Notes under the pieces: model-generated | Told to the model about the DNA's origin: nothing | Seen by the model: the letters and a program-made list of their open reading frames with translations, nothing else | Databases searched by the model: none | Shown here: positions 1,765-17,566 of the stretch, piece after piece | How positions within the stretch are numbered: position 1 is the stretch's first letter | Layout: the number at the start of each line of letters is the position of its first letter | Origin: Candidatus Heimdallarchaeota archaeon | Lineage (GTDB): Archaea; Asgardarchaeota; Heimdallarchaeia; Heimdallarchaeales; Kariarchaeaceae | Assembly (NCBI GenBank): GCA_015523565.1 | Contig: WAKA01000107.1 | Location: 1 to 19,654 of the forward strand | DNA: 19,654 nucleotides | Direction of reading: 5' to 3' | Translations under genes and position numbers: made by a program

Positions 1765-4700
1765 TTAGATTTTGATTTTCCCGTCCTCTTTCACATAAAA
1801 CACTGGGGGTTTTGCCCTGATTCTGCATTCTTCCAAGAATTCAAGAAGCGCAGGGTCTTTTTCCTGTTTTTTCTGTGCACGTTCGATTGCTTTTCGTATT
1901 CGATCAGAAATAGGATGCTGTGGAATTGATTCTGCAATTATTGCCCAAAGTTCATATGCATCCCTCCTTACGGAGGCATGGGAATGGTTCGCCGCCTTAA
2001 GTGATGCAGTAACTATTTTATCCAATGCTTTCACGATATCTGCTGGAATCGTTTTAAGGGTCGCAATTTTTTCCATTGATAGACGGATAACCTGCTTGGC
2101 AACCGCGCGAGACCCATAATCTTCTTCTTCAATCACAGGGGGAATGACCTTGAGTACTTCATCAATGAGCGTTAGATTCCTTTCAGATATGGTACCCATA
2201 AGATGAATACCAGTTTGCCTGATTTGGGGGCTTTTGTTCTTGATTAGTTTTTTACCTATATCAAAAAGCTCTTTGGCATAGGCTCTTTGTTTTTCGAGCA
2301 GTTTGTTTGCAAAGTCAAGGGAAACTTCCCTGACATGACCGTCTTGGTCATTAAGACCTTTTTTGAGCATGGGAATACTATCTTTCAGTCGATGGGGTTG
2401 GTTAAGCACACTTTGGAAGTAAGCATCAAATGCGGAAAGCCTTACATGCCATTTTGGTGATTCAGTGAGAGGAGACAATGTATTCAAGACATCGTCTACA
2501 AGTGTTCGGTTGTGTTTGCCTATGGCACCCAACGTTTCTATGACCTTGATTTGGATAATGTCATTTGGACTATCAACATGATCGATAACAAGCCTGTAAA
2601 TAGCTCGTCCCATTTCTGGGTTAACGTTAGCAAGTTCATTGAGAATTTCCAATGCAATTTCTTTTTGGAGTGTTGAACCTTTCTCAAGGGTTGTTTCTGC
2701 AATGAAATAAAGGTCGTCTGCAAAAGGGCTGTTCTTATGCATTGCCAGAGGAACAAAAGCTCTAAGGACATTCTCTTGAATTTTCTCGTTCTTGATTTTT
2801 TTCAAGACGGCTGAAAGAAATTCAAATGATTCTTTGTCATAATCTGTACTAGTCCTAATAAACTGTTCGACAACCTCTGTCATGGGGATTAAAAGTTCTT
2901 GGTTACCTTCAATATCATCAAGAATTGATTTTGCATAGGAGATAAGAATTGGAGAAACAGCAGGATATGTTTTGACAATATAAGAAAATCCTTTCAATGC
3001 TTCTGAACGGATCATAAGATCATTTTCCTGTAATGCATCTGTCAAAAGGGTTGCAAGTTCCCCCTCTTTGCCAGTATGAAAAGCCGCAAGGTTGGCAAGG
3101 ATTTTCGTGGCAGTCCTTTTTCTTGTCACGTCACTTGTCTGATAAAATGTGTGCAACATATCCAACAGGTTTGTGGAAAGACTTGGATTTGCACGTAGGA
3201 CTTGTCGGATGCCTTCAATCAGAACCGTCTTTTGTTTGCTTGTCAAGTCAGGTTGATTAAGTGCCTCCAAGAAAGTTGAAAGCAGAATGGTTCCCACATC
3301 AGAAAAATCACGTGTTGCTTGATTAATAAAATGGAAGATCTGTTCGGTCTCTTCACCGCTTCTTCTTGTCATTGCCCTGATAATGTATGAAAGCACTGCA
3401 CTTTTCATTTTTGGGCGGTCTTTCATGAGATATTGCAATGTCCTATTGGCTTCCCATGCGACAGATACCTCTGGGTCATAAATTTTACTGATGATAAGGT
3501 TTAACCCTTCCAGAACCTTGTTTTCCTTGAAAAATCGGAAGTAGTACCGTAGCGACCTCAAGGCAAAGAGTCGGACACCATGTGATTTGTCTTCCAAAGC
3601 ATCAATGATCATTTGGTAATACTCATTGTCTTCATTCTGCAGTCCCTTGACTACGGAAAGCAATGCCTGAGATGCGGCAATTCTGACTGCCTCATAAGGA
3701 GAATTCAGGGTTTCTTCCAAAATGGTCTTGAGAATGACATGGGAGGATATATCCTTGCTGACCTTTTTTCGAGCCAATTCAAGCATTGCTACCAAAGCCT
3801 TTTCAGATTTTATCTTTTGATAAAATTCCAGCCAGCCTTCAACATCGTCATATAATTTGGGAAGTTCCCAGACCAATCTTCTTTCCACAAGACCAGGAGG
3901 ATCAACAAGGATGATTGTAGCAGATACAAGGAGTATAAGATTTTGTACAATGAGAAAAATCAGAACTAGGCGTGGGTGACGATTCAGTCCATATGCACCA
4001 AGCACATTTATCTGCTGTAATTCAATTGGCAGGTTTGCATAGACTTCCAAAATACTTGCAATCACAACACCAAAGAGAACAAAAACAGGAAGGAAAAGGC
4101 TTAAGGCAGAAACCTTGAATCCACTTTCATTCCAGACTGCAAGCATTTCCTTAAGGGCACCACGACCCTTATTTAAAAGGGAAAGGACAAACACAAAACC
4201 CAACCCGACACCAGTTGAAAGAAAGCCAACAGTTGAAAGTTGGATTATGTCAGTAATATTATTGTAGACAAAGTAGGCAGTGGTCAGTAGGGCTTGAACT
4301 GCAAAGAGTACTAGAAAAGCACCTCCAAGCTCAAATTGTGGGATCATTCGGAAATTCCCTTTCTCATCCTTGAACTTAATTTTAGGCCATCCCAACTTGA
4401 AGAAATCATTTGCAAAGTTTTTCTTCCTTACCAATTTCAAGGTTAAAAGATCCTCTCCTAGACCAGATCCTGCAAGGGCACCTAAATTTATCATAGGGAG
4501 CATTATGGCCCAAAGCAACAAGGCAGTAATTAGACTAGTATCCAAAAATTTGATCAATAGAACAATAGGCAATAGATACAATAAGAAATAGGCTAATAAA
4601 GTGGCAATTATCCGGGAATGAACCTTTTTTGCCAAAGCCTCCATAAATGTTTCAATAACAAATTCTGCGGGGATTGCTGAATCCTCCCCCTCTTTTGACA

Positions 4701-5133
4701 AGGAATAAAATTCGAAAAGAGGATATACCAAAAGGAAACCTATTGAAATGAAAATCAAGAATCTTGAAAGAACACTGCTGGATGCTTCATTAAAAACTTC
4801 TATAGAGACAACAAAGAGGGTGACAAAGCCGATGGATACAAGTATGGAAAACATGAATAAGGAAACCATCCGTCCAAAGGACAGTTCATTAAGGTCAGAG
4901 ACACCAGCAGTTGACTTTACCTCTTCAGATGCGAATGAAAAAGCCCCAAGACTAATAATGATGAAGAGCATGGAACCAACAGCACTGACAAATATTTGGC
5001 TAAGGAATTGTTCGTCCTCTGTAAGAGCCAATATTGAGAAATATCCTGTAACAATTAAAAGACTGAGAGCAAGAGAGGTACGAGGGTTCACGGAATAATA
5101 TTTGGCTATATCAATTAAATCTTTTGTAATCAA
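1765..5133 (-). CDS. Polytopic membrane protein (~10 TM) fused to a long C-terminal HEAT/ARM-repeat solenoid
   Basis: About 10 hydrophobic segments in the first ~410 aa, then repeated HEAT motifs: LNSPYEAVRIAASQAL, LEDKSHGVRLFALRSL, LQENDLMIRSEALKGF, ESPKWHVRLSAF, LNDQDGHVREVSL, IKNKSPQIRQTG, ANHSHASVRRDAY. TTG start. Confidence 0.85.
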   Translation of the reverse strand: MITKDLIDIAKYYSVNPRTSLALSLLIVTGYFSILALTEDEQFLSQIFVSAVGSMLFIIISLGAFSFASEEVKSTAGVSDLNELSFGRMVSLFMFSILVSIGFVTLFVVSIEVFNEASSSVLSRFLIFISIGFLLVYPLFEFYSLSKEGEDSAIPAEFVIETFMEALAKKVHSRIIATLLAYFLLYLLPIVLLIKFLDTSLITALLLWAIMLPMINLGALAGSGLGEDLLTLKLVRKKNFANDFFKLGWPKIKFKDEKGNFRMIPQFELGGAFLVLFAVQALLTTAYFVYNNITDIIQLSTVGFLSTGVGLGFVFVLSLLNKGRGALKEMLAVWNESGFKVSALSLFLPVFVLFGVVIASILEVYANLPIELQQINVLGAYGLNRHPRLVLIFLIVQNLILLVSATIILVDPPGLVERRLVWELPKLYDDVEGWLEFYQKIKSEKALVAMLELARKKVSKDISSHVILKTILEETLNSPYEAVRIAASQALLSVVKGLQNEDNEYYQMIIDALEDKSHGVRLFALRSLRYYFRFFKENKVLEGLNLIISKIYDPEVSVAWEANRTLQYLMKDRPKMKSAVLSYIIRAMTRRSGEETEQIFHFINQATRDFSDVGTILLSTFLEALNQPDLTSKQKTVLIEGIRQVLRANPSLSTNLLDMLHTFYQTSDVTRKRTATKILANLAAFHTGKEGELATLLTDALQENDLMIRSEALKGFSYIVKTYPAVSPILISYAKSILDDIEGNQELLIPMTEVVEQFIRTSTDYDKESFEFLSAVLKKIKNEKIQENVLRAFVPLAMHKNSPFADDLYFIAETTLEKGSTLQKEIALEILNELANVNPEMGRAIYRLVIDHVDSPNDIIQIKVIETLGAIGKHNRTLVDDVLNTLSPLTESPKWHVRLSAFDAYFQSVLNQPHRLKDSIPMLKKGLNDQDGHVREVSLDFANKLLEKQRAYAKELFDIGKKLIKNKSPQIRQTGIHLMGTISERNLTLIDEVLKVIPPVIEEEDYGSRAVAKQVIRLSMEKIATLKTIPADIVKALDKIVTASLKAANHSHASVRRDAYELWAIIAESIPQHPISDRIRKAIERAQKKQEKDPALLEFLEECRIRAKPPVFYVKEDGKIKI

Positions 5134-5148
5134 ATTTGTCTTATTGTT

Positions 5149-5487
5149 CTATTTGGTTTTTGTTACATCAGGCAAGTTTACAGATACCGCAAGAGTCATT
5201 AAAATTTTAAGCTCGTCAATGGTAAGTTTGTTGTCCAGATTGGCTACATCAAAGGCATCTTTTAGCATTTGTGCTTTGAATTTTTTCAATATGTCAACCT
5301 CCTCAGGGGTGATTATCCCATCATCAAGGGCTTCCTTGAGTTTTTCTGTAAATTCTGCAAGAGAAACCTCTATGGTTTTCAGGATATTGTGTTCATCTTC
5401 AGTGATTTTGCCATCTTCAGCGGCCAGTTCAATAAACCTTTTCATGTTTAGAACAAAAAGCTCATCGGGTGTTAACTCTTTTTCCAT
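5149..5487 (-). CDS. Small acidic helical protein with three A-x-x-D-G/N-x-I/L-T-x-x-E repeats (TerB-like)
   Basis: AAEDGKITEDE, ALDDGIITPEE, ANLDNKLTIDE resemble the TerB-family ADG-x-I-x-x-x-E motif. ATG start with an AT-rich TATA-like element (TATATTTAAT) about 20-30 nt upstream. Confidence 0.7.
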   Translation of the reverse strand: MEKELTPDELFVLNMKRFIELAAEDGKITEDEHNILKTIEVSLAEFTEKLKEALDDGIITPEEVDILKKFKAQMLKDAFDVANLDNKLTIDELKILMTLAVSVNLPDVTKTK

Positions 5488-5525
5488 TATTTAGAATGCG
5501 GAAAAGAATTAAATATACATTTGCA

Positions 5526-6383
5526 TTAGCAATTTTCAGCTACATAGGCTGCTCCGAAATATCGTTTCTCATCCATGAGGAGGTCAATTTTCAAAGAGGT
5601 AAAACCAGCCTTTGAAAAGATAGTCATCCATTTGTCTGGACTTAACCAACCAGGATGGGGGCGGTATTCATAAAGCGGAACATTCCACCAACCTTTGAAA
5701 AGAGAAAACATTATTTCTAACGGCCAAGGTCTAGTTGCTGAGTATGGGGACCCCTCCCCCAAAACCAATGTCCCAGTTGGTTTCAGATGATTCTTGATCC
5801 ATTTCAATGCACCCACAATGTCATTTGCCACATGTAGGGCATTTGTGGCATAAATGACATCAAACAACTGATCTGTTTCAGGTAAGTTGTGTAGATCAAT
5901 AATTTGCGTATGCAATGGTAAATCAGGAGGAAGTTTCTTTTTGATGTCCTCTAGAAAATAAGGTTTTATGTCTGAAAAACAGAAAGTTTTTGCTTCTTTT
6001 AGGTATTGGCTTAATAGAAGTGTTGTGCCTCCAACACCACCGCCAATCTCAAGTACATCCGCACCCTTGATCAATGGGTGAACATATCCAGCAACCAATT
6101 CATTGAAAAAGTTCTGTGTACCATTGTTTCTGTTCCAATCTTCCCATAATTGCGAACCACCTTTCTTTATTATTTCACTCCCAGTTATATTTCCAGCAAG
6201 AAAATCCTTAAGATTTTCATCCAAAAGTCTAAGATATTCCAATGTTGGTCGGATTTCCTCAAGGTCGAACTGGGGTTCAGTTACTGGAACTGCTGGCAGG
6301 CTTTCCAAGATACGCTGGGCAGTATTGACCAAATATTGTGCTTCCAAAGCAAATTCTTGTGAAGGGGATATCCATCTCATCAC
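5526..6383 (-). CDS. Class I SAM-dependent methyltransferase, PKS C-methyltransferase-like (start uncertain)
   Basis: Motif I VLEIGGGVGGTT, FSDI, FDVIYATNALH, LKPTGTLVLGE, FSLFKGWW, LSPDKW...AGF. Frame is open upstream to 6512. Confidence 0.85.
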   Translation of the reverse strand: MMRWISPSQEFALEAQYLVNTAQRILESLPAVPVTEPQFDLEEIRPTLEYLRLLDENLKDFLAGNITGSEIIKKGGSQLWEDWNRNNGTQNFFNELVAGYVHPLIKGADVLEIGGGVGGTTLLLSQYLKEAKTFCFSDIKPYFLEDIKKKLPPDLPLHTQIIDLHNLPETDQLFDVIYATNALHVANDIVGALKWIKNHLKPTGTLVLGEGSPYSATRPWPLEIMFSLFKGWWNVPLYEYRPHPGWLSPDKWMTIFSKAGFTSLKIDLLMDEKRYFGAAYVAENC

Positions 6384-6534
6384 TTTTTCTGCAAGTTGAT
6401 GGCAGATAGGTTCAAGGTAATCATAATAAAGCGAAAGTTTTGTGACTGTTCTTTTACAGTTGATCAGATGTATTTTGCTTTCCTCCAGAATCTCATCAGG
6501 GAAGATGATATTTTAATATTGGGAAATGACTAGT

Positions 6535-9237
6535 CTATTGGTTTTTCAAGAGTTGAGCAAGGACATAATTCAAGATTCCGCCATATTTGTAATAATCAAT
6601 TTCAATATCTGTATCAAGCCTTGTGATGACCATAAATTCCTTGGTTGTTCCATCAGATTTCTTGGCAACGACCTTTAGTTTCTTTTTGGCCTCCAAGCCG
6701 TCTTCAATACCCAGTATGTCAAATTCCTCCGTTCCGTCAAGTCCCAGTTCTCTCCATCCTTCGCCTTCTTCAAATTGGAGAGGAAGCACACCCATACCAA
6801 TAAGGTTGCTTCTGTGGATACGTTCGATTGATTTGAAGAAAACAGCCTGTACCCCAAGCAATGCAGGACCCTTTGCGGCCCAGTCACGGGAAGAACCAAC
6901 ACCATATTGTTTTGCACCCAGCACCAAGGCTGGGACACCATCGGAAATATATTTTCGGGATGCCTCAAAAGTGGTCATCACCTCCCCTGTTGGAACATAT
7001 TTTGTCCACCATCCCTCCTTTCCAGGAACAAGTTGGTTCTTGACACGGACATTAGCAAAGGTCCCCCTCATCATCACCTCATGGTTACCTCTTCTAGAGC
7101 CATAAGTGTTGAAATCTTTCTTTTCGACACCATGGGCAATCAGGTATTGTCCAGCAGGACTGTCTTCTGCAATTGCACCAGCTGGGGAAATGTGATCTGT
7201 AGAAATTTTGTCATCAAGAAGTTCAAGAACCCGAGCACCATAGATATTCTTTGGGTCTTCTGGATCAAGAGTGAAGTTTTCAAAGAATGGGGGATTTCTG
7301 ATGTAAGTCGAATTGGGATCCCATTCAAACAAGGTACTCTTTGGTGCATTCAAGGCCTGCCATCGGAAATCACCTAGCATGATACGTGAATAATGCTTTG
7401 TGAACATTTCAGGTTTTATGCCTTCTTCAATGGCTTTCTTGATTTCCTGCTGGGTTGGCCAGATATCCTTCATGAAGATGTCTCTACCGTCTTTTGATTT
7501 TCCTATCGGTTCATTGAGCAGGTCGATATCGGTTCTTCCAGCAAGTGCATAGACGACTACCAGCATGGGAGAAGCCAAAAAGTTGCCACGAGTGAGAGGG
7601 GACACACGTCCAGCAAAGTTTCTGTTGCCACTAAGGACAGAAGTGACATAGAGGTCTTCTTTCTTGATTGCCTCCTCTAACTGAGGCAACAATGGACCAC
7701 TGTTTCCGATACATGTCGTACAACCATATCCAACAGTATAGAAGCCAAGTTGATTCAAATACTTTTGTAGATCAAGTTGATTCATATATTCTGTTACGAC
7801 AAGTGATCCTGGAGCAAAACTTGTCTTGACATATGGAGGTGTCTGCAAACCAAGCTCAACTGCTTTCTTGGCAACAAGTCCTGCCCCAACCATGACAGAG
7901 GGATTTGAGGTGTTTGTACAACTTGTAATCGCAGCAATGACAACACTTCCATCCCTTAAAGTTGCCTTTTTACCATCAATTTCAACCTCGACACTGCGTA
8001 GTTCTGCATTCTTGGAACGTTGTGCGACATGAGCCTCAAGGAATTCAAGAGCCCTCATTTTTGCCTCACCAATGGACACTCTTTCCTCTGGATTCAGGGG
8101 TCCAGAAATAGAGGGTTGGACAGTGGACATGTCAAGTTCCAAATGGTCAGAAAATACAGGATCGGGAGTGTCTTCAGTTCTGAAAATATGGCAAGCCTTT
8201 GCAAATTCCCTAACAAATTCAATATGTTTCTCATCACGTCCAGTTAGTTTTAGATATGTCAATGTTGTTTCATCAATTGGGAAATAGCCCATGGTGGCAC
8301 CATATTCAGGAGCCATGTTGGAAATTGTTGCACGGTCAGGCAAGGAAAGGTTAGAAAGTCCAGGACCGTAAAACTCCACAAACTTACCAACGACCCCTTT
8401 CTTTCTGAGCATTTCAGTGACTGTCAACACTAGATCAGTGGCAGTTGCCCCTTCAGGAAGTTCACCAGTAAGTTTGAAACCTACAACTTCAGGCAATAAC
8501 ATATAGTATGGTTGACCAAGCATTACGGCTTCTGCTTCTATACCGCCAACACCCCAACCCATTACACCTAGACCATTGATCATGGTGGTATGGCTGTCAG
8601 TACCCACAACAGTATCAATTACAGCAACATTTTCCCCATTAATGGTTCTGACATCTCCTACTTTCGCAAGGTGTTCTAAATTCACTTGGTGTATAATTCC
8701 AGAGCCAGGGGGGACAACTTGAAAGTCCTTGAATGCTTTTTGAGCCCATTTGATAAGGGTGTATCTTTCCTTGTTCCTCCCATATTCCATTTCCATGTTT
8801 ATGTTCAAGGCATTTGCAGACCCATATGAGTCAACTTGAATGGAATGGTCAATGACAAGATCAGTAGGAATCATAGGATTGATTTTTTCCGGATCACCAC
8901 CATTTTCATTCATGGCTTCCCTCATGGCAGCTAAATCAACAATGAGAGGCACCCCAGTAAAGTCTTGCAACACAACTCTTGCAGGCATGTATGGGATTTC
9001 CAATTCACCAGTTCCTGTAGGCCAATTGGCAATGGAATTGATGTCTTCCAGTTTAACCAATTTCCCGTCATGATTTCTCAAAACGTTTTCAAGCAAAACA
9101 CGAATTGAAAAGGGAAGTTTTGAGACATCCAACCCCTTTTTGATAAGTGGGTCAAGAGAGTACATATATACTTCTTTTGAACCCAATGACACTTTGACCT
9201 TACTGGAGGCAATGTCACTTTCTGTAATCGGTTCCAT
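6535..9237 (-). CDS. acnA: Aconitate hydratase A (AcnA/IRP family)
   Basis: PARVVLQDFTGVP, DLVIDHS, GTDSHT, 4Fe-4S ligands in AAITSCTNTSNP and GYGCTTCIGNSG, TDHISPAG, GSSRDWAAKG. I prefer the ATG at 9237 (MEPITES) to the TTG at 9291 because TTATAA lies ~24 nt upstream of it. Confidence 0.97.
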   Translation of the reverse strand: MEPITESDIASSKVKVSLGSKEVYMYSLDPLIKKGLDVSKLPFSIRVLLENVLRNHDGKLVKLEDINSIANWPTGTGELEIPYMPARVVLQDFTGVPLIVDLAAMREAMNENGGDPEKINPMIPTDLVIDHSIQVDSYGSANALNINMEMEYGRNKERYTLIKWAQKAFKDFQVVPPGSGIIHQVNLEHLAKVGDVRTINGENVAVIDTVVGTDSHTTMINGLGVMGWGVGGIEAEAVMLGQPYYMLLPEVVGFKLTGELPEGATATDLVLTVTEMLRKKGVVGKFVEFYGPGLSNLSLPDRATISNMAPEYGATMGYFPIDETTLTYLKLTGRDEKHIEFVREFAKACHIFRTEDTPDPVFSDHLELDMSTVQPSISGPLNPEERVSIGEAKMRALEFLEAHVAQRSKNAELRSVEVEIDGKKATLRDGSVVIAAITSCTNTSNPSVMVGAGLVAKKAVELGLQTPPYVKTSFAPGSLVVTEYMNQLDLQKYLNQLGFYTVGYGCTTCIGNSGPLLPQLEEAIKKEDLYVTSVLSGNRNFAGRVSPLTRGNFLASPMLVVVYALAGRTDIDLLNEPIGKSKDGRDIFMKDIWPTQQEIKKAIEEGIKPEMFTKHYSRIMLGDFRWQALNAPKSTLFEWDPNSTYIRNPPFFENFTLDPEDPKNIYGARVLELLDDKISTDHISPAGAIAEDSPAGQYLIAHGVEKKDFNTYGSRRGNHEVMMRGTFANVRVKNQLVPGKEGWWTKYVPTGEVMTTFEASRKYISDGVPALVLGAKQYGVGSSRDWAAKGPALLGVQAVFFKSIERIHRSNLIGMGVLPLQFEEGEGWRELGLDGTEEFDILGIEDGLEAKKKLKVVAKKSDGTTKEFMVITRLDTDIEIDYYKYGGILNYVLAQLLKNQ

Positions 9238-9257
9238 GTACAAGGCATACCCTAACT

Positions 9258-9275
9258 TTGTTATAATCTTTGGGA
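9258..9275 (-). promoter_or_regulatory. Putative BRE/TATA for a leaderless acnA transcript
   Basis: Minus strand reads CCAAAGATTATAACAA. TTATAA (9266-9261) sits at archaeal TATA distance from the ATG at 9237. Confidence 0.45.
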
Positions 9276-9355
9276 ATGACACACTTGACAATCGATAATT
9301 TTTGATTGGGAGGTGACAATAACCTCAAATGTGCAAATGATTTTGAACAAATGAA

Positions 9356-9752: not shown

Positions 9753-10094
9753 CTAGTATTCCATTCCCTCAAGTTCAAGCATAAGTTCCCCGACTTTCAT
9801 CAGAAGCCGGTACTCATCGTTGCTTAGATAATTGTCGTTAAGGGCTGTTTCAAGGGCACGCTCCCATATTTTTTGTTTAGTCAAGTTCAAGAAATGCCTG
9901 TCACCCTCATCAAATTTTCCTTCTTCATTTATTTTGGTCAGCAGAATGAAATATCTTTCCAACCCCTCCATAACGGATTCAATGACATGCATTTCTTCCT
10001 GAGTCAATTCATTGTCTTCTAGCGCAATATCCTTGAGATCAGACCATGCCTTTTGGAAAATATGTTCCACAAGAATATATTCGCCAATAACCAA
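9753..10094 (-). CDS. Second TerB-like three-repeat acidic protein (paralog of 5149..5487)
   Basis: ALEDNELTQEE, INEEGKFDEGD, ALNDNYLSNDE with the same 31/29-residue spacing as the 5149..5487 protein. TTG start. Confidence 0.7.
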   Translation of the reverse strand: MVIGEYILVEHIFQKAWSDLKDIALEDNELTQEEMHVIESVMEGLERYFILLTKINEEGKFDEGDRHFLNLTKQKIWERALETALNDNYLSNDEYRLLMKVGELMLELEGMEY

Positions 10095-16999: not shown

Positions 17000-17566
17000 T
17001 CATACCTTAAGGTGCTCAACAAAATAGTCAATCATTCTATTGAAAGCAGTCTCTATATTCTCCCCAGTTTTTGCACTGGTAAGATAAAAAGAGACTGGTC
17101 CTTGTGTTTTAAGCTCGATATCCCTTATTTTTTGTGCAATTTCATCTTCACTAACAGCAGGTTTCCTTTCTCCACTTTGGACAAGGTCTATCTTGTTCCC
17201 AAGAAGAATTATTGGTACCACCATGGTTTCGGGACTATAATCTATCTCATTAAGGAACTCGTCGATAAACATATCTATATCATCAAAGGAATATCGTTCT
17301 GTTATATCAAATACAATAAACGCGGCGTTTGAGGCAGTATAGTAGAGTTTTCTGATATGGTCGAACTGCTCTTGACCTGCAATGTCCCAGATCTGAAGAA
17401 CAAATTCACCTTTAGGGTGCGTAATGCGCTTGACCGCAAAATCAGCACCAATCGTTAACGAGTAGTTCTCTTTGAATTGTTCTCCAAAATAATTACGGCG
17501 AATGCTTGTCTTTCCGACTCTTTTGCTACCGATTAGTATGACTTTGAATTGGCTAGGGATACTCAA
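17000..17566 (-). CDS. Ras-superfamily small GTPase, Rab-like
   Basis: G1 GSKRVGKTS, G2 YSLTIGADF, G3 WDIAGQEQF, G4 GNKID, G5 TSAK. No C-terminal Cys motif. Confidence 0.93.
   Translation of the reverse strand: MSIPSQFKVILIGSKRVGKTSIRRNYFGEQFKENYSLTIGADFAVKRITHPKGEFVLQIWDIAGQEQFDHIRKLYYTASNAAFIVFDITERYSFDDIDMFIDEFLNEIDYSPETMVVPIILLGNKIDLVQSGERKPAVSEDEIAQKIRDIELKTQGPVSFYLTSAKTGENIETAFNRMIDYFVEHLKV

Follow-up and report, generated by a model that had tools for sequence, protein, structure and literature searches.

Several described systems join a membrane domain to a cytoplasmic repeat array. In bacterial transporter fusions of the MFS/NTT(TLC)-HEAT(-cNMP) type, a membrane domain is followed by cytoplasmic HEAT repeats. 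LRRC8 anion channels consist of a TM pore and cytoplasmic LRR, and NOMPC and TRPA1 combine an ankyrin solenoid with a channel. Adaptin/AP large subunits are soluble and are built from a HEAT trunk, a hinge and an appendage (ear). Within the Asgard archaea, the asCOG catalogue holds a family, from Lokiarchaeum ossiferum and MK-D1, that has an N-terminal polytopic membrane domain and an Adaptin_N-scoring HEAT array. In the part of the catalogue available it is labelled 'Adaptin_N like', category U, which is a name only, with no function given there. The locus described here encodes a protein that resembles both the bacterial fusions (membrane domain plus cytoplasmic HEAT repeats) and, by architecture, the asCOG family, as it has ten TM helices followed by a HEAT array that scores 45.2 bits with Adaptin_N. 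Going by that catalogue, the family is already on record, though uncharacterised. No main-text discussion of Asgard TM+HEAT proteins or of the asCOG label was found in the literature searched.

The window, the whole stretch of 19,654 nucleotides that was analysed, contains the gene P0001 on the minus strand. Its maximal ORF lies at 1765..5133 and has 1122 codons plus a stop. A sequence-only reading of the window had described a 1122-aa ORF with about ten TM helices in an Asgard lineage, and hydropathy and an AlphaFold model bear out the ten helices. P0001 is a real gene of a Heimdall-type Asgard archaeon (Heimdallarchaeia/Kariarchaeota-type). The TTG at 5133 lies 15 nt from the stop of the upstream gene, P0002, which is the spacing that had been reported. 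Translation probably begins at a GTG at codon 15 (5091-5089), since this codon is kept in 4 of 4 orthologous loci and no in-frame start is possible before it in L001/L049. A length of 1108 aa is more likely than one of 1122 aa, and the gap to P0002 then becomes about 57 nt. Neither the TTG nor the GTG is preceded by a recognisable Shine-Dalgarno sequence. In the loci compared, the Heimdall branch has no conserved neighbour gene beside the TM-HEAT gene. A Ras-family GTPase gene at 17000-17566 lies 12 kb from P0001, with unrelated housekeeping genes between them, and a connection between the two was considered but found no support. A role for P0001 in a defence system was considered and rejected because the gene is single-copy within its own genome, is vertically conserved and lies among housekeeping genes. 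The PADLOC matches for P0001 are to generic HEAT repeats alone (OloA 2.7e-11, residues 443-687), and PADLOC returned nothing for the TM domain or for P0002.

The N-terminal part of P0001 (residues ~15-430, 3844..5091, minus strand) is a conserved 10-TM domain with an N-in/C-in topology according to hydropathy, the AlphaFold model and the homolog alignment. The ten helices fall within residues 19-410 (hydropathy and AlphaFold model, pLDDT 81.6, pTM 0.80). By the positive-inside rule, K+R is 26.6 inside versus 3.0 outside over 12 homologs, and all 37 of the 37 invariant loop columns in the 12 homologs are cytoplasmic. The invariant motifs that face the cytoplasm are PAEF..E (155-161), GALAGxGxGEDL (218-229), NKGRG (321-325), VWxExGFK (333-340) and PPG..ERRL (412-420). 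Y182, Y186, P189, Q280 and N398 are invariant within the membrane. In this topology, every invariant polar or charged residue of the domain lies within the bilayer or on its cytoplasmic side. Conservation is 0.54 in the TM domain versus 0.42-0.45 in the solenoid, and reaches 0.61 in the C-terminal cap, in alignments that are shallow (12-16 sequences).

What kind of membrane domain is this? MFS and NTT (TLC) transporters have 12 TM helices arranged as two homologous 6-TM halves, whereas P0001 has ten and its halves are dissimilar. A test for a 5+5 repeat gave an hhalign probability of 0.13%, a comparison of sequence alone that a structural repeat could escape. Residues 1-440 have no MFS or TLC match in Pfam/NCBIfam even at E<=1, and no Pfam family and no solved fold was matched by the TM domain in the searches. 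Judging by the lack of a family-model match, the ten helices and the dissimilar halves, the domain is probably not a standard MFS/NTT transporter. Widespread bacterial orthologs of the domain were not found either. The sequence-only reading had named beforehand a standard MFS/NTT domain with widespread bacterial orthologs as the result that would count against it, and in the comparisons made the domain does not fit that description.

P0001 is a HEAT-repeat protein, with tandem hairpins that score above the Pfam gathering cutoffs. The solenoid (residues ~441-1107, 1813..3813, minus strand) was delimited using Pfam and the model and is variable in sequence across the family. Matches above cutoff to HEAT, HEAT_2, Adaptin_N and Cnd1 span residues ~445-1057, with scores of 48 bits for HEAT (PF02985, cutoff 23.5) and 47 bits for HEAT_2 (PF13646, cutoff 27.7); the cutoff for Adaptin_N is 37. 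The full-length model has about 38 helices from residue 444 to 1107, or about 19 hairpins. It had been proposed that P0001 carries at least nine HEAT repeats; the repeats are present, but the number was an undercount. Pfam and NCBIfam found no catalytic domain in P0001, which agrees with the earlier statement that there is no catalytic motif. The proposed architecture, a polytopic membrane domain with a long cytoplasmic alpha-solenoid, is likewise upheld by Pfam, hydropathy and the models. The HEAT solenoid of about 670 aa is predicted to project into the cytoplasm, and the full-length model has a pTM of 0.52, so that the orientation of the TM domain relative to the arm is uncertain. The middle of the solenoid is variable, and conservation in P0001 peaks at the C-terminal cap. 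This segment comprises the last HEAT repeats and the C-terminal tail (residues 1041-1122, 1768..2013, minus strand), contains KAAN.S...IRR.AYE and further on QEKDPALLEFLEECRIRAKPP, and has a short beta-hairpin at its end.

The top Foldseek matches of the solenoid are CAND1 and karyopherin-beta/importin (7z8t, 4a0c, 2z5k, 3w3x), with E ~1e-11. Like the arm of P0001, these proteins are unbroken HEAT superhelices, with about 19 repeats and a similar length. However, with TM-scores of only 0.2-0.35 and an identity of 10-16%, the match reflects no more than a shared class of repeat. In addition, CAND1 and karyopherin-beta are soluble, whereas the solenoid of P0001 is covalently joined to a 10-TM domain. 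Could P0001 be a membrane-tethered homolog or precursor of the eukaryotic adaptin/coat large subunits? The Adaptin_N score and the asCOG label and category, as they appear in the available part of that catalogue, would favour such a relationship, but Adaptin_N is a generic HEAT/ARM model and the nearest solved solenoids are the CAND1 and karyopherin-beta structures, with no AP or COPI structure among the matches listed. P0001 also has no hinge or appendage domain; it ends in the HEAT cap and short hairpin, without an appendage match in Pfam, and its arm can be replaced by WD40 or LRR in relatives. Descent of this kind is considered extremely unlikely.

In a set of 1.84 billion proteins the P0001 family has only 66 representatives, and the named ones all come from Asgard archaea. 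TM-HEAT proteins occur in 10 of the 11 genomes of the organism's own family and in all three of the sister family. The family is rare, Asgard-restricted and, as judged from the sequences, vertically inherited. The arm is made of HEAT repeats in 26 of the 34 long members, LRR in two and WD40 in two, and there is an additional WD40 fusion (L047). The domain composition shows the TM module as the constant part, joined to an arm that appears to be exchanged among HEAT, WD40 and LRR. An hhalign comparison (97%, E 1e-10, 352 columns) shows the TM domains of the Heimdall and Loki types to be homologous, and the only TM-domain residues kept family-wide are P138, L145, E161, Y186, P213, W334 and K340. 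The cultured Ca. Lokiarchaeum ossiferum has a TM+HEAT homolog, NEF87_002451 (P0021), with a TM domain homologous to that of P0001, an indirect sign that P0001 may belong to the asCOG family. The two branches differ in several respects. The Heimdall/Kari-type branch has its own GEDL, NKGRG and ERRL motifs and a conserved C-terminal tail, whereas GEDL and NKGRG are absent from the Loki-type TM domain. The Lokiarchaeial branch has a conserved upstream partner, DUF4332, which is not P0002-like and which the Heimdall/Kari-type branch lacks.

A mere anchor does not need ten TM helices, or Y, Q and N residues conserved inside the membrane; a channel, a transporter or an enzyme would account for these features equally well. 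A channel or transporter regulated by the solenoid, in which the ten helices form the path and the repeat arm gates or tethers it, would be comparable to LRRC8 and NOMPC/TRPA1, where a membrane channel also carries a cytoplasmic repeat arm. The ten helices, the intramembrane Y182, Y186, Q280 and N398 with helix-breaking prolines, the higher conservation of the TM domain than of the arm, and the existence of relatives with LRR arms are all consistent with this arrangement, which we regard as possible though unlikely. Polytopic enzymes that act on lipids or glycans often cluster invariant charged residues at the interface between the cytoplasm and the membrane, and all of the invariant charged residues of the TM domain cluster there. 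E157, E161, E227-D228, K322, R324, E329, E336, K340, E417 and R419 could then form an active site for a lipid or polyprenyl-linked substrate, with the HEAT arm recruiting or regulating. However, these motifs occur in the Heimdall branch only, the seven residues kept across the whole family are few for a shared active site, and no enzyme family or fold was matched. An enzyme of this type is improbable.

P0002 (5149..5487, minus strand) is encoded just upstream of P0001 and is an acidic protein of 112 aa with three tandem (E/D)DG-(I/V)-IT-x-(E/D)E helix motifs. It had been called TerB-like, and a weak, remote resemblance to TerB/SHOCT proteins is what can be retained of this. The P0002-family profile matches PDB 2ou3 (COG3793) weakly and remotely at positions 11-105 with E 0.009, a near end-to-end alignment that shares the repeated DG-x-h-x-x-x-E helix-start motifs. 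Ten of the 14 family members touch Pfam TerB at E<=0.1 (best 6.7e-5). However, P0002 itself scores 15.6 bits with TerB (PF05099), below the curated cutoff of 24.4, and SHOCT and GA_3 score similarly; the SHOCT (PF09851) match is 23.4 bits over a single stretch of 16 residues, below the cutoff of 27, and the 112 aa of P0002 contain three short tandem units. The TATA-like element that had been reported before P0002, TATATTTAA, is present at 5509..5517 on the minus strand (read 5517-5509), about 26 nt upstream of the ATG and in the 38-nt spacer that follows a methyltransferase stop. It is weak evidence for a promoter because the spacer is AT-rich. The window also contains a second, diverged P0002-like paralog, P0023 (9753..10094, minus strand).

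Do P0002 and P0001 form a two-gene module, with P0002 as a partner that senses metal or regulates the TM-HEAT protein, as had been suggested? Both genes are read from the minus strand with 15-57 nt between them, and the pair may have a promoter of its own upstream. A P0002-like gene lies immediately upstream of the P0001 ortholog in the window, in L001/L049/L054 and in L051. The P0002-like proteins are expanded in the families f1, f2 and f4, and the core TM-HEAT family occurs in f1 and f4 too. However, where the pair is retained, a whole block of about 12 kb is collinear (M20 peptidase, aconitase, methyltransferase, small gene, TM-HEAT gene), and the pairing thus points to shared descent and not to independent retention. 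The small gene is absent from the locus in G054, which belongs to the same genus (L002/L055) and has its nearest copy about 14 kb away, and it is absent from the TM-HEAT loci of all other genera and families, including f4, and of the Lokiarchaeia. There are about 15 dispersed paralogs of this lineage-specific family per genome, beside unrelated genes such as those for a subtilase, AlaRS, a GT2 glycosyltransferase and V-ATPase subunit I. These comparisons, together with a TerB score below the curated cutoff, make a two-gene module very unlikely. The sequence-only reading had itself named a pairing that is not conserved as grounds against it, and this is what the survey of loci showed. Gene order indicates that P0002 is a neighbour by recent genus-level synteny and is not part of the system.

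We give about even weight to the reading that P0001 is a stand-alone, vertically inherited and Asgard-restricted membrane protein, in which a TM module carries a cytoplasmic docking arm. The TM module would perform the constant membrane-level task of the family, and its cytoplasm-facing site may bind, sense or pass a small or lipidic ligand. The repeat arm would be an exchangeable platform for protein docking that brings cytoplasmic partners to this site, a role suggested by what HEAT, WD40 and LRR repeats usually do. The C-terminal cap may bind a partner that is itself conserved, or may fold back onto the conserved residues of the cytoplasmic face; contact between the cap and the TM face is speculation, because the orientation of the domains is uncertain. 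It is also conceivable, and we put this forward tentatively, that the 10-TM domain represents an Asgard-specific membrane fold not defined before, whose conserved cytoplasmic face acts jointly with interchangeable HEAT/WD40/LRR arms to anchor interaction scaffolds at the membrane. It would then be functionally analogous to, and not homologous with, the eukaryotic membrane-recruited adaptors and tethers, and would have partners particular to each branch, such as DUF4332 in the Lokiarchaeia.

As the TerB-like neighbour is not a conserved partner, the locus should no longer be described as a two-gene stress-sensing module. A TM module that stays constant, that gave no match to described families or solved folds in the searches, and that swaps HEAT, WD40 and LRR arms is a concrete target for study. 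The family is small, confined to the Asgard archaea and conserved by vertical descent. One of its members, NEF87_002451, belongs to L. ossiferum, which is in culture, so that experiments to localise the protein and to search for its partners are feasible.

The window takes up the whole of a 19.6-kb contig (C107) from a 3.57-Mb MAG that is 90% complete. Its archaeal gene content includes ribosomal protein L15e, PheRS alpha and beta, an RNase P p30-like protein, aconitase and a Ras-family GTPase. The relatives of the TM-HEAT protein, P0001, are encoded in MAGs bearing the names Candidatus Heimdallarchaeota and Kariarchaeota, and all family members with a named source are Asgard (Heimdall-, Hod-, Odin- or Loki/Promethearchaeota), which bears out the assignment to an Asgard lineage. 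The P0001 ORF has 1122 codons and lies on the minus strand (1765-5133), next to the gene for P0002, an acidic protein of 112 aa (5149-5487, minus). The TTG at 5133, 15 nt past the P0002 stop, was taken as the start in the sequence-only reading. The ORF and the TTG exist, but this start is doubtful. All four orthologous loci keep a GTG at codon 15 (5091-5089), and in two of them (L001 and L049) no earlier in-frame start is possible, so that P0001 probably has 1108 aa and is separated from P0002 by about 57 nt. A Shine-Dalgarno sequence is not visible before either the TTG at 5133 or the GTG at 5091. The TATA-like element claimed for the small gene, TATATTTAA, is present about 26 nt 5' of the P0002 ATG.

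Ten TM helices were found in P0001 both by Kyte-Doolittle analysis and in an AlphaFold2 model of residues 1-440 (16-sequence alignment; pLDDT 81.6, pTM 0.80), which also has an amphipathic helix (155-171) and a beta-hairpin (251-268). Across residues ~445-1057, the Pfam models HEAT, HEAT_2, Adaptin_N and Cnd1 exceed their cutoffs. The full-length model (pLDDT 82.5, pTM 0.52) has ~38 helices over 444-1107, roughly 19 hairpins, which makes the earlier count of at least nine repeats an undercount. The asCOG catalogue label for this architecture reads 'Adaptin_N like'. The likeness of the P0001 solenoid to CAND1 and karyopherin-beta is generic only (E ~1e-11, TM-score 0.2-0.35), and an adaptin homolog is unlikely.

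The charge distribution in 12 homologs (K+R 26.6 in putative cytoplasmic loops vs 3.0 in outer loops) gives a predicted N-in/C-in topology for the TM domain with a cytoplasmic solenoid. All 37 invariant loop columns are on the cytoplasmic side and none is on the outer side. Residues Y182, Y186, P189, Q280, N398, P138 and P213 are invariant within the membrane. The TM domain scores 0.54 for conservation, the solenoid 0.42-0.45 and the C-terminal cap (1041-1110) 0.61. Pfam and NCBIfam searches gave no family match for the TM domain even at E<=1, and it has no convincing match among solved and Atlas structures; no likeness to MFS, NTT or ClC was detected, and comparison of its two halves revealed no internal repeat. 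The protein is probably not a standard MFS/NTT transporter. Ten helices and conserved intramembrane polar residues are more than an anchor requires, so P0001 may instead be a channel or transporter gated by its solenoid or, less probably, a membrane-embedded enzyme. No catalytic domain was detected in P0001 with Pfam and NCBIfam, as the earlier lack of a catalytic motif had indicated.

P0001 is single-copy in its own genome. A word-indexed search with the TM part returned just 11 relatives (926-1107 aa), all with HEAT repeats, and an exhaustive profile search of 1.84 billion representatives returned 66 proteins at E<=1e-3, mostly of 1000-1500 aa. Among 400 genomes of the phylum, the core type occurs in 10 of 11 from the window's family and in all three from a sister family, with weak hits elsewhere. 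These weak hits are real homologs: independent alignments of the Heimdall-type and Loki-type TM domains match over 352 columns (97% probability, E 1e-10). Loki-type proteins likewise have ~10 TM helices followed by HEAT repeats. Among them are NEF87_002451 (Ca. Lokiarchaeum ossiferum B-35) and a Ca. Harpocratesius repetitus protein, annotated just as 'HEAT repeat domain-containing' or 'hypothetical'. The GEDL, NKGRG and ERRL motifs and the conserved tail of the Heimdall branch are absent from the Loki branch, and the only family-wide residues are P138, L145, E161, Y186, P213, W334 and K340. The 'Adaptin_N like' line stands in supplementary file 3 of PMC9834061, for orthogroups common to L. ossiferum and MK-D1, and no main-text discussion of the architecture was found in the literature searched; the architecture is therefore catalogued but uncharacterised. 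One 1491-aa member, P0087 (NCBI MHA1731515.1), bears the public annotation 'sister chromatid cohesion protein PDS5'. Its residues 156-326, near the N-terminus, match the TM-domain profile, and the label is very probably an over-annotation from generic HEAT similarity.

The repeat arm is exchangeable. The arms of the 34 long members of the family alignment (A3) are HEAT in 26, LRR in two and WD40 in two. The LRR arrays, which replace HEAT, are strong (LRR_8 E 1.7e-47). In one sister-family genome the TM module (29% identity, E 1e-21) is joined to ~600 aa of WD40 beta-propellers instead of HEAT (L047:4143-7469, minus). This protein has an extra hydrophobic helix at its C-terminal end, and its arm may be anchored at both ends.

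P0001 and P0002 had been proposed to form a two-gene module, with P0002 described as TerB-like. P0002 is built from three tandem (E/D)DG-(I/V)-IT-x-(E/D)E helix units. It scores 15.6 bits against Pfam TerB (cutoff 24.4) and 23.4 bits against SHOCT (cutoff 27), too low for either. The best PDB match of the 14-member family profile is 2ou3, a COG3793 tellurite-resistance-type protein (E 0.009, nearly end to end), and 10 of the 14 members touch Pfam TerB. 'TerB-like' is a fair label for a remote resemblance, short of TerB membership. The module itself is not supported. The small gene is located 5' of the TM-HEAT gene in L001/L049/L054 and L051, where the entire block is collinear (M20 peptidase, 105-aa gene, aconitase, methyltransferase, small gene, TM-HEAT gene, 394-aa gene, DUF885), so the pairing there is due to shared descent and not independent retention. 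A small-family HMM scanned over 21 TM-HEAT loci found no adjacent copy in same-genus G054 (L002/L055), where the nearest is about 14 kb off, nor in L003, L004, L056, L058-L063, the f4 locus L046 or the Lokiarchaeial loci. P0002 also has 12-15 paralogs spread over many contigs, one of them inside the window (9753-10094) and others on C30, C37, C95, C104, C121, C165, C174, C180, C181, C190, C207 and C222. Given the scan, the collinearity and these dispersed paralogs, the two genes are not a conserved pair, an outcome that the sequence-only reading had named as refuting its proposal. With few exceptions the copies stand alone, as ORFs of 100-130 aa, and have unrelated neighbours; for four other paralogs checked in this genome, the large genes alongside encode a subtilase, AlaRS, a GT2 glycosyltransferase and A/V-ATPase subunit I. 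In a few relatives the unit lies inside longer ORFs of 410-761 aa (G010, G353, G057, G063). Close orthologs of P0002 occur in five protein clusters only. The family is a lineage-specific expansion: genomes of genus g1 carry 14-15 copies and those of families f2 and f4 carry 8-9, against zero or one in the rest of the phylum.

When all neighbouring ORFs were clustered, no family recurred across lineages save aconitase (5 loci). Upstream of the pair in the window are the genes for a class I SAM methyltransferase (5526-6383) and for aconitase (6535-9291). The aconitase adjacency (window 5526-9291, L002, L003) outlasts that of the small gene across lineages; the loci differ in its orientation and in whether the methyltransferase is there, and it is therefore probably residual synteny and not function. 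On the other side, a 424-aa protein (487-1761, plus) without a Pfam family has a signal-like N-terminus and, at its C-terminus, a hydrophobic anchor, as well as an acidic repeat region rich in His, Asp, Thr and Glu. Its gene is convergent with the TM-HEAT gene, 3 nt separating the two stop codons, and this placement is conserved only in the close relatives with a collinear block (L001, L051).

A genuinely conserved pair exists in the Loki branch. Ten of 12 distinct loci, from four taxonomic families, have a DUF4332 gene of helix-hairpin-helix type (260-330 aa) directly upstream of the TM-HEAT start and on its strand (L044:2065-2850; L045:2024-2806; also L029-L035, L037, L038, L040, L048). The Heimdall branch lacks this pair, and no DUF4332 was detected in the genome of the window, which is 90% complete.

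The observations of the sequence-only reading are confirmed and its interpretation is partly supported. P0001 is a stand-alone, vertically inherited, Asgard-restricted protein, in which the 10-TM module with its conserved cytoplasm-facing surface is constant and the cytoplasmic repeat arm is variable. The arm would serve as a docking platform while the TM module would do a constant membrane-level job, and the conserved C-terminal cap may touch the conserved cytoplasmic face or a conserved partner. With the P0001 gene, a catalogued but functionally uncharacterised Asgard family gains a new member in the Heimdall branch. The family is experimentally tractable via a homolog in a cultured Lokiarchaeon.
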